A stretch of DNA of 64,000 nt from Vicinamibacteria bacterium (GCA_963806705.1 CAWDZE010000007.1:25037-89036), one strand, 5' to 3'; positions 36,987-41,928 are shown, numbered from the stretch's first letter. The notes: a model not told the origin generated them from the letters alone. A program made the numbers and translations.

Positions 36987-38258
36987 TCACCAATCCACGA
37001 CCGACCCGTCCTCCTCGTCGTAGGTCTGCGGGTTGGTCCAGTCGTGGCCGATCTTGTCGGCCATTGCCGCAGCGTCGAGCTCGATGCCGAGGCCCGGTTT
37101 GAGCGGCAGCTCCACGTAGCCGCCCTTCACGACAAACGGCGTCTCGAGATAGCCCTCGCCCAGGCTCACCTGCTCCTGGCACATGAAGTTCGGGATCGAC
37201 GCGGCCAGCTGCAGGCCCGCCGCAAGCGAGATCGGACCGAGCGGGTTGTGCGGCGCAATCGACGCGTAATGCGCCTCGGCCATCCCTGCGATGAGACGGC
37301 ACTCGGTGATGCCGCCGGCGTGACACAGATCGGGCTGCAGGATCACGGCGGCCTGCTTTTCGAGAATCTCGCGGAACCCCCACTTCGTGAAGATCCGCTC
37401 GCCGGTCGCAATGGGCAAGTGCGTCCCGCGCGCGATGTCGGCCATCGCGTCCACGTACTGGCAGTTGACGGGCTCTTCGACGAACATCGGCTGAAACGGC
37501 TCGATGGCCTTGATGAGCAGCTTTGCCGTCGCCGGGCTGATCGCGCCGTGGAAGTCGATGCCGATGTCGGCGTCGGGCCCGACGGCCTCGCGCAGCGCCG
37601 CGAAGTTGTCGGCGGCCTTCTTCACAAAGCCCGGCGTCTCGACGAATCGCGCCCAGCCCCGGGTGCCGTCGGGGCCGCGGCGGCTCAGGTACGGCCCCGT
37701 CTTGAACGCCGTGAAGCCCTGCGCCTTCTGCTGCTTCACCGCGTCGATGGTGCGCGCGTGCGCGTAGACGCGGATGCGGTCGCGTGTGGGGCCGCCCAGC
37801 AGTTCGTACACCGGCACCCCCAGCGCCTTGCCCTTGATGTCCCACAGCGCCTGATCGATGCCCGACAGCGCGCTGGTGAGGATGGGGCCGCCGCGGTAGA
37901 ACGCGTGGCGGTAAATCGCCTGCCAGTGATGGACCACGCGCCGGGCATCCTGACCGACCAGGTACGGCTCGATTTCCTTCACCGCCTCGGCACAGGTCAG
38001 CGCCCGCCCTTCGGTGACGGGCTCACCGAGCCCGACGATGCCCTCGTCGGTGTGAACCTTCAGAAACAGCCAGCGCGGCTTGACGAGGAGCGTCTCGAGT
38101 TTCGTGATGCGGATGCTGCCGGTCCCCGGGGACTGCCCGCGCTCGTGAGCGGCGTCGCCTGTTGCCGCCGCGGCCGGCCCCGCAAGCGACGCGGCGCCGA
38201 TTGCCCCGAACACCTCACGCAGAAACGTCCGTCGCGCGCTGGCTCGCTGCACGGTCAC
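36987..38258 (-). CDS. Enolase-superfamily dehydratase (galactonate dehydratase-like) with twin-arginine signal peptide
   Basis: N-terminus SARRTFLREVFGAIGAASLAGPAAAA. Then ITKLETLLVKPRWLFLKVHTDEGIVGLGE, DQALWDIKGK and FVEEP. Confidence 0.75.
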   Translation of the reverse strand: MTVQRASARRTFLREVFGAIGAASLAGPAAAATGDAAHERGQSPGTGSIRITKLETLLVKPRWLFLKVHTDEGIVGLGEPVTEGRALTCAEAVKEIEPYLVGQDARRVVHHWQAIYRHAFYRGGPILTSALSGIDQALWDIKGKALGVPVYELLGGPTRDRIRVYAHARTIDAVKQQKAQGFTAFKTGPYLSRRGPDGTRGWARFVETPGFVKKAADNFAALREAVGPDADIGIDFHGAISPATAKLLIKAIEPFQPMFVEEPVNCQYVDAMADIARGTHLPIATGERIFTKWGFREILEKQAAVILQPDLCHAGGITECRLIAGMAEAHYASIAPHNPLGPISLAAGLQLAASIPNFMCQEQVSLGEGYLETPFVVKGGYVELPLKPGLGIELDAAAMADKIGHDWTNPQTYDEEDGSVVDW

Positions 38259-38416
38259 CCCCCTTGCTCGCCTACTCTACACTGCTGGTCGCAACACAGG
38301 CGCGCTGGCGCCGCAAATTGGCCATAGAGAACGAGCTCGCGGAGAGTGAGGAGGACGCTCGCAGGCGGTCCAATTGCGGGGAGATCGGGAGGGGTGGTGA
38401 ATACTGGGGGGAGGCG

Positions 38417-38445
38417 TTGACCTGCCCGCGCCGGCTGCATAGACT
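38417..38445 (+). promoter_or_regulatory. Candidate sigma-70-type promoter for the ManD-like gene
   Basis: TTGACC (38417-38422), 17-nt spacer, TAGACT (38440-38445). GGAGG and the ATG at 38464 follow. Motif match only. Confidence 0.3.
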
Positions 38446-38463
38446 CCGCCGCGGAGGCGCACG

Positions 38464-39830: not shown

Positions 39831-39885
39831 AATGGGCACGTACCTGCTGTCGCCGACGTTCGCTGAATTCGCAAGGAGGCGCCGT

Positions 39886-40296
39886 ATGCGTCATGTCATG
39901 TTCGTCCTGGTCTTCATCGTTGTCTGCGCGGGCGCGCTGCCATCGGCTCGAGCGAAACAGTCCTCCGACGACCGCCTCGTCGGCGCCTGGACTGGGACGT
40001 ATGACGGCGACAGCACGGGCAAGTTCACGATGTCGATCGCGCGCGACGAGGCGAAGAAACTCGGCGGCACGCTCGACGTCGCGTTCGACGAAGGCGGGGG
40101 CTATACGGCCACGTTCAAGACGATCGCCATCGACGGAGATACGGTGACCCTTGCCTACGACGCGCCGGACGACGGAAGCAAGGTACAGCTGGACGGGACC
40201 ATCGAGGGCAAGACGCTCAAGGGCACGTGGAAGGCCGCCGAGCCTGGCACCAGCACCGTGGCGTCGAGCGGCACGTTCACGGCCTCGAAACAGTGA
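39886..40296 (+). CDS. Hypothetical small secreted protein
   Basis: Signal peptide MRHVMFVLVFIVVCAGALPSARA, then a beta-rich G/T/D-rich sequence. Sits 6 nt upstream of the GMC gene. Confidence 0.5.
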   Translation: MRHVMFVLVFIVVCAGALPSARAKQSSDDRLVGAWTGTYDGDSTGKFTMSIARDEAKKLGGTLDVAFDEGGGYTATFKTIAIDGDTVTLAYDAPDDGSKVQLDGTIEGKTLKGTWKAAEPGTSTVASSGTFTASKQ

Positions 40297-40302
40297 CGCC
40301 TG

Positions 40303-41928
40303 GTGCAGATTCTCACGCGCCCGTCGGTTGACGTCTGCGTCATCGGCTCGGGTCCCGCCGGCGGCTTCGCCGCAAAGGAGCTGACCGAGGCGGGCGCGTC
40401 GGTCGTGCTGCTCGAGGCCGGCGACCAGGTGCGCCCGGAGCAGTTTGCCGGGCACCGGTGGCCGTATGAGTTCCCGCGGCGCGGCACCTTCGAGGAACGC
40501 CAGCAGCCCTTTTATCCCGACGACATCGGCCGCCACATCGCATTTGAAGGCCCGGACCGCGTGGGCGTCGATCGGATTCGCGTCCTGGGCGGGCGCAGCA
40601 TCCACTGGAACGCGGTCACGCTGCGCTTCTCCGCGGACGACTTCCGCGAAGGACGCCACGGGCTCGAGCCCGACTGGCCGCTCTCCTACGAAGAGCTGGC
40701 TCCGTTCTACAGCCATGTCGAGCGGACCATTGGCGTCTGCGGCACGCGCGAGGGCCTGGCGCAGATCCCCGACGGCGAGTTCTACGGTCCGCCTCCCAGC
40801 ATGCGCTGCGCGGAGCGGCTGGCGCAGAAGTCGGCGCGGTCGCTGGGGATCCCGGTCATCCCGGTGCGGAAGGCGATGCTGGTGGGCCAGTCCCGCCCGG
40901 GTCGCATGCCCTGCCACTATTGCGGTCATTGCATGCAGGGCTGCGAGGTCGGCGCGATCTTCACGAGCGTCAACACCCTGATTCCGGCCGCGCAGCAAAC
41001 CGGGCGGCTGACGCTTCGCCCCGGCGCGCTGGCGCGCGAGATCGAACTCGACGGAAACGGCCGCGCCGCCGCCGTCCACTTCGTCGATCGCCACACCGGC
41101 AGGACCGATGCCGTACGTTGCTCGGTGGCCGTCGTCGCCTGCGGCGCCATCGAGTCGCCGCGCCTGCTGCTCAACTCGAAGTCACCCCGCTTTCCCAATG
41201 GCCTTGCCAACGGCAGCGACATGGTGGGCCGCTGCCTCCACGGCCACACGATCCTCACCATGTACGGATACCTTCCCTCACTGGTCGGCAGGGCCAGCGT
41301 CAACGACGACGGGGCGACCGACCACGCGACCATCGCGCGGTTCAATCACCTGCGCGGCAGGCGCGACTACGTCGGCGGCTTCATGGCGCAACTCCAGTAC
41401 GCCGATCCCGCCTACCCGCATCACGCCAGTCGCGTGCGGGGCTTCGGCGAGGCGTTCAAGCGGCGGGTCCGCGACCTGCAGCCCGCGCTGATGCAGCTGG
41501 GCGGCTTCGGCAAGGTGGTCGCGCGGCCCGACAACCGCGTCACGGTGGATCCGGCGCGGACCGATCGGCACGGGATACCGATTCCGGTGGTGCGCTTCTC
41601 CTACGACGACAACGACCGTGCGCTCTGGCGCGACATGAGCGGCGCGCTCGAGGAGATCTACCAGAAGGCCGGGACCGAGCTGTTCTTCAAGGACGAGCGC
41701 ATGAACGGCTTCGCCAGTCACGAGGTGGGCACCTGCCGCATGGGAGCGGATCCGCGCAGTTCGGTGCTCACGCCGTTCAATCAGACTCACGAAGTGCCGA
41801 ACCTGTTTGTCGTCGACGGCAGCGCGTTTGTGACCTTCCCCGAGAAGAACCCGACGCTCACCATCATGGCCCTGGCGGTGCGCGCGAGCAGGCACATCGT
41901 GGAGCGCAGGCGCAGCGGCCAGCTGTAG
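40303..41928 (+). CDS. GMC family oxidoreductase (FAD-dependent)
   Basis: FAD motif VCVIGSGPAGGFAAKELTEAGASVVLLEAG and a C-terminal GMC_oxred_C-like HEVGTCRMG ... NLFVVDGS. GTG start. Confidence 0.8.
   Translation: MQILTRPSVDVCVIGSGPAGGFAAKELTEAGASVVLLEAGDQVRPEQFAGHRWPYEFPRRGTFEERQQPFYPDDIGRHIAFEGPDRVGVDRIRVLGGRSIHWNAVTLRFSADDFREGRHGLEPDWPLSYEELAPFYSHVERTIGVCGTREGLAQIPDGEFYGPPPSMRCAERLAQKSARSLGIPVIPVRKAMLVGQSRPGRMPCHYCGHCMQGCEVGAIFTSVNTLIPAAQQTGRLTLRPGALAREIELDGNGRAAAVHFVDRHTGRTDAVRCSVAVVACGAIESPRLLLNSKSPRFPNGLANGSDMVGRCLHGHTILTMYGYLPSLVGRASVNDDGATDHATIARFNHLRGRRDYVGGFMAQLQYADPAYPHHASRVRGFGEAFKRRVRDLQPALMQLGGFGKVVARPDNRVTVDPARTDRHGIPIPVVRFSYDDNDRALWRDMSGALEEIYQKAGTELFFKDERMNGFASHEVGTCRMGADPRSSVLTPFNQTHEVPNLFVVDGSAFVTFPEKNPTLTIMALAVRASRHIVERRRSGQL

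Follow-up and report, generated by a model that had tools for sequence, protein, structure and literature searches.

Can enzymes of the enolase superfamily dehydrate sugar acids outside the cytoplasm? To our knowledge, every characterised acid-sugar dehydratase of this superfamily works in the cytoplasm. The question is raised by a locus in a 64,000-nucleotide (nt) stretch of DNA from a Vicinamibacteria bacterium (GCA_963806705.1, CAWDZE010000007.1:25037-89036; hereafter the window, positions being counted from its first letter), where two enolase-superfamily genes, here called Eno1 and Eno2, lie back to back beside genes for a small secreted protein and a GMC oxidoreductase. An earlier note on this DNA had claimed that both proteins carry twin-arginine (Tat) type leaders, and it proposed an extracytoplasmic route from aldose through aldonate to 2-keto-3-deoxy acid or, as an alternative, moonlighting of the fold outside the cell. 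We found that the leaders are conserved, being shared by hundreds of relatives from soil bacteria, and that the active-site residues are intact. These results suggest that Eno1 and Eno2 are catalytically competent acid-sugar dehydratases, one DgoD-like and one ManD-like, and that each is probably made with a cleavable Tat signal peptide and exported to the periplasm.

Conserved twin-arginine leaders on Eno1 and Eno2

Eno1 (36987..38258, minus strand) is a galactonate-dehydratase-like protein of 423 amino acids (aa) when read from the GTG at 38258; a second GTG at 38252 would give 421 aa, as in the closest homologues. Its predicted Tat-type signal peptide covers residues 1-32 (38163..38258, minus strand). 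The N-terminus reads MTVQRASARRTFLRE-VFGAIGAASLAGPAAAA-TGD, with ASARRTFLRE as the n-region, VFGAIGAASLAGP as the h-region and AAAA|TG as the c-region, the bar marking the predicted cleavage site. Eno2, a ManD/RspA-like protein encoded on the opposite strand, has a predicted Tat-type signal peptide of residues 1-31 (38464..38556, plus strand) that is composed of MKRRDALRR, the h-region ISGGTLAAGAALLP and the c-region DLTTKLQA|QE. Both N-termini quoted in the earlier note are present, with MTVQRASARRTFLREVFGAIGAASLAGPAAAA opening the Eno1 open reading frame (ORF) and MKRRDALRRISGGTLAAGAALL opening a 66-aa ORF at 38464 on the plus strand. The arginine pair (RR) stands in the context A-RR-TFL in Eno1 and K-RR-DAL in Eno2, which fits the motif Z-R-R-x-hydrophobic-hydrophobic, and an uncharged, mildly hydrophobic stretch consists of 19 residues and then AAA|T in Eno1 and of 14 residues and then LQA|Q in Eno2. 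Both leaders contain an h-region of at least 13 uncharged residues, an end rich in Ala and a small-x-small cleavage site, LQA|Q being the weaker site. The N-terminal extensions, 48 residues long in Eno1 and 43 residues (leader plus linker) in Eno2, lie outside all family-profile and PDB alignments of the core of either protein.

To examine conservation of the leaders, RR was sought in the first 32 residues of the best 120 representatives (90%-identity clusters) from each family. RR was present in 113 of the 118 DgoD-like and in all 119 ManD-like full-length homologues; in the five DgoD-like exceptions, the annotated start falls within the h-region. Since RR is constant across the homologues while the h-regions vary freely, the leaders behave as signal peptides, and the sequences of both families bear out the Tat-type leaders claimed for the two enzymes. 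A scan of ManD-like loci, with one genome taken per species (80 loci, 76 of them informative), found the leader in 70 of the 76 informative loci, which come from Acidobacteriota, Planctomycetota and Bacteroidota and include the isolate Fibrisoma limi BUZ 3 (WP_009283771.1). The leaderless loci, five from Poribacteria and one from Chloroflexi, encode proteins that are ~64% identical and begin with MKITDV or MAERGLPAVTITDV; stop codons closely precede these starts. Because orthologues either carry or lack the leader, the ManD-like leader appears to be a discrete module. For Eno1, a HMMER search was carried out against 1.84 billion 50%-identity representatives and the 104 nearest full-length ones were assessed; 12 of these have an RR leader and 90 begin at the core.

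These findings bear on whether the leaders could be artefacts of annotation or start-codon choice, or relics, with translation starting from the core to give an ordinary cytoplasmic DgoD and ManD. Some public gene calls of close homologues do begin inside the h-region (P0002, P0003 and P0007), an ORF finder gives Eno2 from an internal GTG, hidden Markov models (HMMs) of Tat signals miss the window leaders, and a cytoplasmic Eda aldolase is a frequent neighbour. However, an in-frame ATG or GTG occurs together with the RR and the hydrophobic stretch in those 113 of 118 and 119 of 119 homologues and across three phyla, and relic or non-coding DNA would not hold frame and motif at 58-80% core identity. 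Moreover, the leaderless lineages show their stop codons immediately upstream of MKITDV, and most Eno2 orthologues lack a start codon at the core (L-K-I-T-D). An artefact or relic is therefore highly improbable. True starts downstream of the RR motifs, which according to the earlier note would have undone its proposal, were looked for in the orthologues, and the leaders proved not to be miscalled starts.

Among the Tat-signal models, the formate_TAT region model (formate-dehydrogenase TAT) matched the Eno1 leader at E=5.7e-4, which is under the model cut-off. Two homologue leaders, that of the Fibrisoma limi Eno2 orthologue and that of one Eno1 homologue, passed TIGR01409, the two scores being, in no stated order, 17.4 and 20.4 bits against 16.7. 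As a control for chance, a strict RR plus hydrophobic rule was applied to every start codon of the 204 ORFs of at least 150 aa in all six frames of the window. Seven of these ORFs (3.4%) passed the rule, including Eno1 and a bona fide DUF1501 protein, and the Eno2 leader passes too.

A third enolase-superfamily paralogue, which is 32-40% identical to Eno1 and scores below all NCBIfam cut-offs, also has an RR leader (e.g. MNRRTFLTAFATAPAAGLL) and adjoins the ManD-like gene in eight of the related loci (L008, L009, L013, L014, L027, L028, L031 and L050). The presence of a leader on this paralogue as well suggests that the predicted exported enolase-superfamily enzymes make up several families that cluster together.

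The frameshift in Eno2

As read, Eno2 is split into the 66-aa ORF that starts with the ATG at 38464 (plus strand) and a 407-aa ORF at 38607-39830 that lies one frame away; the body of the ManD/RspA-like dehydratase spans 38592..39830 (plus strand). Alignment with the related contigs L002 and L003 placed the change from leader frame to body frame in a C run at 38590..38592 (plus strand), where the window is one C short of the CCCC run of L002, a 95%-identical contig. A sequence fault near 38590 had been suspected earlier, and this single-nucleotide deletion bears the suspicion out. With the C restored, Eno2 reads ...ERPASLKGLPPLKITDVQTILT..., is 455 aa long and aligns over 100% of its own length with homologues of 455-460 aa, at up to 96% identity.

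In an 18.7-kb alignment of the window with L002, 50 of the 52 gaps were 1-2 nt long, and several unrelated window genes are split in the same way, namely the beta-lactamase-like gene, a DUF1501 gene (19645-20556 / 19083-20198) and a kinase gene. The frameshift is therefore most likely an assembly error. Single-base indels split many genes across the window, and together with the gap pattern they suggest that indel errors were left in a long-read assembly; pseudogene calls in this window warrant caution. If the frameshift, which is in the sequence as given, were instead real, Eno2 would be a true pseudogene in this strain and only Eno1 would be functional here. Against this stand the homopolymer site, the 1-2-nt gaps relative to a 95%-identical assembly, the other genes split alike and the different 1-nt indel that L002 has in the same Eno2 leader. 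Eno2 shows no further damage, and its repaired product is 96% identical to the intact homologue P0121. We consider a true pseudogene quite unlikely.

Enzyme families and active sites

Both Eno1 and Eno2 contain PF02746 (MR_MLE_N) and PF13378 (MR_MLE_C) with scores well above the cut-offs, which correspond to a capping domain and a modified TIM barrel. Eno1 passes the NCBIfam galactonate dehydratase equivalog NF010624 with 431.8 bits (cut-off 311), residues 50-423 being aligned to model positions 2-382, and its nearest solved structure is 3RR1 (E=7e-102), with an alignment that begins at the core. Repaired Eno2 is closest to ManD but scores below the cut-offs of the ManD equivalog (412.2 vs 550) and the PRK15072 subfamily (410 vs 430); its nearest solved structures are 3T6C, 3TW9 and 4IHC (best E=7e-140), and here too the alignment begins at the core. 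The family assignments made previously, including that of the 541-aa neighbour as a GMC oxidoreductase, were correct.

The catalytic acid/base residues of DgoD are His185 and the His285-Asp258 dyad (Escherichia coli numbering), and the active site of ManD comprises the Arg147-Tyr159 dyad, His212, His312 and Glu339 (NaManD numbering). MAFFT alignment showed that D235, H237, E261, E287, D310 and H337 of Eno1 correspond to D183, H185, E209, E235, D258 and H285 of E. coli DgoD, the numbering of the reference sequence used agreeing with the literature residues. By the same method, R192, Y203, D257 and H259 of Eno2 correspond to R147, Y159, D210 and H212 of NaManD, and E283, E309, H359 and E386 correspond to E236, E262, H312 and E339; the NaManD sequence used is identical to PDB 2QJJ. 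The three carboxylate ligands of Mg2+, at the ends of barrel strands 3, 4 and 5, are D235, E261 and E287 in Eno1 and D257, E283 and E309 in Eno2. The catalytic and metal residues of Eno1 are invariant in 120 of 120 homologues, and the active-site residues of Eno2 are invariant in 119-120 of 120. The residue roles are reportedly those assigned by Rakus et al. in 2007 for ManD and by Wieczorek et al. in 1999 for DgoD.

The check on acid-base residues and Mg2+ ligands that had been advised thus found all of them conserved. Because these residues are invariant, the two proteins are better regarded as enzymes than as moonlighting folds, and the moonlighting alternative loses its ground. We also considered that the exported proteins might bind a periplasmic substrate, moonlight, or perform another enolase-superfamily chemistry, such as that of a racemase, an epimerase or a cycloisomerase, rather than dehydrate acid sugars. 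The scores of Eno2 under the ManD equivalog and subfamily cut-offs are compatible with this, and many members of the ManD subgroup have low or no activity on the acid sugars tested. Nevertheless, invariance extends to all three Mg2+ ligands and to every residue characteristic of DgoD and ManD catalysis, Eno1 exceeds the curated galactonate dehydratase cut-off, and the neighbouring genes are sugar- or carboxylate-related. A function other than acid-sugar dehydration is thus very unlikely.

Compared with the known DgoD enzymes (E. coli; 3RR1/3RRA from Ralstonia pickettii), Eno1 is alike in its two-domain fold, its pass of the equivalog and its active-site residues, with ~50-55% identity to canonical DgoD, and the linkage of DgoD to a KDPG-type (2-keto-3-deoxy-6-phosphogluconate) aldolase is also seen in many Eno1 relatives. 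DgoD lacks the 48-residue Tat-type extension of Eno1, as do 90 of the 104 nearest cluster representatives. It is cytoplasmic and encoded in a dgoRKADT-type cluster, whereas Eno1 has a Tat-type leader and no dgoK, dgoA, dgoT or dgoR was found in the window. Eno2 shares with ManD/RspA (NaManD 2QJJ; 3T6C from Pantoea, 3TW9 from Salmonella, 4IHC) the fold, the Arg-Tyr dyad, the DxH motif, the three Mg2+ carboxylate ligands and the His/Glu carboxylate-binding residues, and it resembles the 3T6C group in the long 150-180s loop. It differs from them in its 43-residue Tat-type leader plus linker and in its scores below the cut-offs. The neighbours of ManD/RspA genes are uxu or gulonate/idonate clusters, whereas those of Eno2-type genes are periplasmic, outer-membrane and transporter genes.

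Gene contexts in relatives and a possible periplasmic route

The context of ManD-like genes was examined by clustering all ORFs around the gene in the 80 genome loci and annotating representatives. A TonB-type outer-membrane barrel was found near the ManD-like gene in 12 loci and a pyrroloquinoline quinone (PQQ)-cytochrome c quinohemoprotein dehydrogenase in nine. In six of the nine PQQ loci, the dehydrogenase, a signal-bearing 320-aa protein and the ManD-like gene form a tight same-strand array. An LctP-family permease gene lies directly 3' of the ManD-like gene in seven loci, mostly from Planctomycetota; seven loci encode a signal-bearing RraA-like aldolase nearby, and five a Gfo/Idh/MocA oxidoreductase with a Tat leader. 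The ~320-aa signal-bearing protein (L006 9003-9965, L016 8938-9906, L063 9001-9963, also L018, L020 and L008) gave no match to Pfam, NCBIfam or PDB sequences, and it is a candidate for a missing step such as that of a lactonase or an epimerase.

For DgoD-like genes, look-ups and 80 metagenome loci were used. Genes for a TctC/TctB/TctA transporter were found directly downstream of the DgoD-like gene and a signal-bearing GH127 upstream of it, and a KDPG-type (Eda) aldolase gene lies downstream in 19 of the ~42 loci with enough flank.

A beta-lactamase-like gene also recurs near both dehydratase families, although the linkage is loose. In the window it encodes a secreted beta-lactamase-family serine hydrolase (32866..34162, plus strand; NCBIfam AmpH and class C matches) with the signal-like N-terminus MHRSVVGRGIFQALLVLLLAYAG, and it is split by a frameshift at ~33576-33599. 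Beta-lactamase genes flank the Eno1 homologues in L001, L082, L083 and L087, and in L007, L021 and L028 an orthologue of the beta-lactamase-like gene has the ManD-like gene in its vicinity.

Observed here were the leaders, how they are conserved and distributed among phyla, the intact active sites and the contexts of the genes; from these we infer export, cleavage sites, substrates and an order of steps as follows. Eno1 and Eno2 would fold, bind Mg2+ and probably oligomerise in the cytoplasm, and the Tat translocase would export them into the periplasm of the Vicinamibacteria (Acidobacteriota) cell, where signal peptidase may cut near AAA|T in Eno1 and LQA|Q in Eno2. The exported enzymes would dehydrate aldonic acids to 2-keto-3-deoxy-aldonates, the proposed substrate being a galactonate-type acid for Eno1 and a mannonate/gluconate-type acid for Eno2. 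Periplasmic sugar dehydrogenases, or uptake via TonB-type outer-membrane barrels, would supply the aldonates. TctABC- or LctP-type carriers would bring the keto-deoxy acids into the cytoplasm for cleavage by KDPG-type aldolases there, while in some lineages secreted RraA-like aldolases would cleave them outside. Since the leaders are genuine, the catalytic residues are kept and the contexts in relatives are periplasmic or transport-related, the step from aldonate to 2-keto-3-deoxy acid is the best reading of the extracytoplasmic route that the earlier note had sketched; the part that it gave to the GMC protein as aldose oxidase was not supported.

Several observations weigh against export followed by periplasmic dehydration. 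The context of ManD-like genes is heterogeneous, with every neighbour found in at most 12 of the 80 loci, and for this reason the pathway part of the proposal is weaker than the export part. The Eda aldolases encoded beside DgoD-like genes have no signal peptide, so that intermediates would have to pass the inner membrane partway along the route, and the window's own cluster contains neither a transporter gene nor a sugar dehydrogenase with an export signal. With regard to the leaders, the two in the window match neither TIGR01409 nor Pfam TAT_signal (PF10518); that of Eno2 was matched by no Tat HMM and that of Eno1 by formate_TAT below its cut-off. As a signal-peptidase site, the LQA|Q of the Eno2 c-region is weaker than its Eno1 counterpart, Eno2 falls under the ManD equivalog cut-off, and the substrates of both enzymes are only predicted.

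Taken further, the gene contexts raise the possibility that soil Acidobacteriota, Planctomycetota and Bacteroidota run a largely periplasmic pre-digestion resembling a non-phosphorylative Entner-Doudoroff/De Ley-Doudoroff pathway, an idea that we put forward tentatively and that is doubtful. Sugars entering through TonB barrels would be oxidised by PQQ- or flavin adenine dinucleotide (FAD)-dependent dehydrogenases that pass electrons directly to the respiratory chain, and the aldonates might be dehydrated outside the cytoplasm by several Tat-exported families of enolase-superfamily dehydratases. Secreted RraA-like aldolases might cleave the products in some lineages, and only small carboxylates, either 2-keto-3-deoxy acids or pyruvate, would be imported by LctP or TctABC carriers.

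The small protein and the GMC oxidoreductase

The small secreted protein of 136 aa (39886..40296, plus strand) is encoded within an ORF at 39832-40296 (plus strand), and its true start at 39886 was fixed by a 136-aa homologue of 100% identity. It has a Sec-type signal, MRHVMFVLVFIVVCAGALPSARA|KQ, lacks a Pfam family and belongs to a family of ~25 members, all annotated as hypothetical. Its AlphaFold model (pLDDT 86) is an eight-stranded barrel, and Foldseek matched it to lipocalin, nitrobindin and designed beta-barrels; by this model the protein, which is lineage-specific, is a lipocalin-like barrel. The gene follows the ManD-like gene in L001/L003, L002 and L087 regardless of the GMC gene. 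The Sec signal reported previously was thus confirmed, and the gene goes with the ManD-like gene, not with the GMC gene. A role as a Tat hitch-hiker subunit was rejected in view of the Sec-type signal at the true start and the lipocalin-like fold.

The GMC oxidoreductase (40303..41928, plus strand; Pfam GMC_oxred_N and GMC_oxred_C) has 541 aa and no signal peptide, and a kinase gene lies downstream of its gene. Complexes of FAD-dependent glucose dehydrogenase (FAD-GDH) and fructose dehydrogenase are carried into the periplasm by a small subunit that bears the Tat signal. The best solved relatives of the GMC protein are the Burkholderia FAD-GDH 6A2U (E=1e-51) and the large subunit of Gluconobacter fructose dehydrogenase, 7W2J (E=4e-44), and it resembles them in the catalytic subunit and in a Cys-rich stretch, CHYCGHCMQGC, at the position of their iron-sulfur motif. 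Those complexes also contain Tat-bearing small and cytochrome c subunits, whereas the window has the catalytic-type subunit only, with no gene for a Tat-bearing small subunit or a cytochrome c subunit beside the GMC gene at this locus. Adjacency of the GMC gene is limited to the window and L002, and L001/L003 and L087 lack the gene. It was rejected as a conserved partner of the dehydratases, and the role of oxidase in the route, which had been assigned to it, finds no support on the same grounds: the adjacency is unconserved, and the protein has neither a signal peptide nor a Tat small-subunit partner.

The GMC protein is also relevant to whether the RR leader might be used and yet remain uncleaved, so that the enzymes would be signal-anchored on the outer face of the inner membrane or would serve as Tat carriers for a signal-less partner such as the GMC protein. 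Such an arrangement would suit the Eno2 c-region, which has no canonical AxA, and the adjacent FAD-GDH-type GMC protein without a signal of its own, whose relatives 6A2U and 7W2J are exported as Tat hitch-hikers. However, the h-regions are short (13-14 uncharged residues) and mild in hydrophobicity, with a mean Kyte-Doolittle value of ~1.3, as is usual for Tat signals that are cleaved but not for anchors, and most homologues have AxA-like ends (AQA, ALA or AAA). Since just one related locus has the GMC gene, while the leader is conserved in hundreds of genomes, GMC co-export cannot explain the leader. Uncleaved leaders are accordingly unlikely, and cleavable signal peptides remain the favoured reading.

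Arrangement of the locus and other window features

The divergent Eno1/Eno2 pair with the small protein is kept in close Vicinamibacteria relatives only (L001/L003, L002 and L087), and in L024 homologues of Eno1 and Eno2 are both present on the same strand. The divergent pair described earlier is present in the window, and its arrangement is conserved in near relatives only. A conserved divergent pairing of dehydratases was therefore rejected, as it is confined to the near relatives and L024, a different Tat-bearing paralogue being the partner elsewhere.

In the divergent intergenic region (38259..38463), a promoter scan found a promoter-like site, TTGACC-17-TAGACT, at 38417-38445 upstream of Eno2, and the -10-like TAGACT is invariant across the window, L002 and L003. 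An insert of ~125 bp (38287-38412) in this region, which L002 and L087 lack, bears a 13-nt inverted repeat, CCGCAAATTGGCC / GGTCCAATTGCGG (38311-38323 / 38367-38379, 43 nt between the arms), of which no second copy was found in the window or in the fetched related loci. A regulatory RNA or an operator shared by Eno1 and Eno2 was considered and rejected, there being no Rfam match and the inverted repeat lying in an insert that relatives lack.

A segment of ~2.9 kb (34082-36988) is absent from L002, where the beta-lactamase-like gene abuts Eno1. It holds a Ser/Thr kinase gene with PD40/TolB-like repeats that is broken into at least three ORFs (36422-36904, 35373-36425 and 34435-35322, all on the minus strand). 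Genes for a Peptidase_M2 protein (angiotensin-converting-enzyme-like; 29949-31850, plus strand) and COX15/CtaA lie upstream and are syntenic in L001 and L087 (Vicinamibacteria). Elsewhere in the window, a DUF1501 protein (19083-20556, minus strand) carries a clear Tat leader, TRRHFLSATSLGIGGVALASLL, and adjoins a 1100-aa PSCyt1/PSCyt2/PSD1 (DUF1549/DUF1553) protein with a Laminin_G_3 domain (20567-23869, minus strand), a pair that is typical of Planctomycetes and is found here on an acidobacterial contig. A local dip in G+C content to 0.53, against ~0.68 elsewhere, coincides with 53511-55907 (minus strand), which encodes a 798-aa MASE9 + HD_5 (HD-GYP-like) + GAF signalling protein that may have been acquired horizontally.

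Precedent and implications

In these phyla, sugar enzymes of cytoplasmic type that bear Tat leaders are nothing new. The glucose-fructose oxidoreductase of Zymomonas mobilis, one of several Gfo/Idh/MocA sugar oxidoreductases exported by Tat, is a cytoplasmic-type sugar enzyme that is folded inside the cell, exported by Tat and active in the periplasm, and it is the closest functional precedent for a Tat-exported folded sugar enzyme. It differs in fold and chemistry, being an NADP-bound oxidoreductase and not an Mg2+-dependent dehydratase, and it has been characterised experimentally, whereas export of the dehydratases is predicted here. Searches of the full-text literature, with few subscription journals covered, returned chance co-mentions only and no paper on a Tat signal or periplasmic location of an enolase-superfamily dehydratase. 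In public records the proteins are named galactonate dehydratase, mannonate dehydratase, starvation-sensing protein RspA or enolase C-terminal domain-like protein. Eno1 and Eno2 thus look like familiar enzymes with a conserved change of compartment, which would be widespread rather than peculiar to this genome and is apparently undescribed.

Pathway reconstructions place acid-sugar dehydration in the cytoplasm automatically. If Eno1, Eno2 and their relatives are indeed exported, the names galactonate dehydratase, mannonate dehydratase and RspA would mask a different physiology in at least three paralogous families and in ~12% of the sequence clusters nearest Eno1. Members of the ManD subgroup recorded as having low or no activity might have met the wrong substrates in the assays, and an Mg2+-dependent oligomeric TIM-barrel enzyme would join the known cargo of the Tat system. 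Cultured carriers such as Fibrisoma limi BUZ 3 exist, which makes the hypothesis easy to test. With export, models of carbon flow for the abundant Acidobacteria and Planctomycetes of soil would have to include a branch for sugar acids in the periplasm, tied to respiratory dehydrogenases, and the more tentative pre-digestion route, if true, would give a classic pathway a new compartment and the enolase superfamily its first extracytoplasmic branch.

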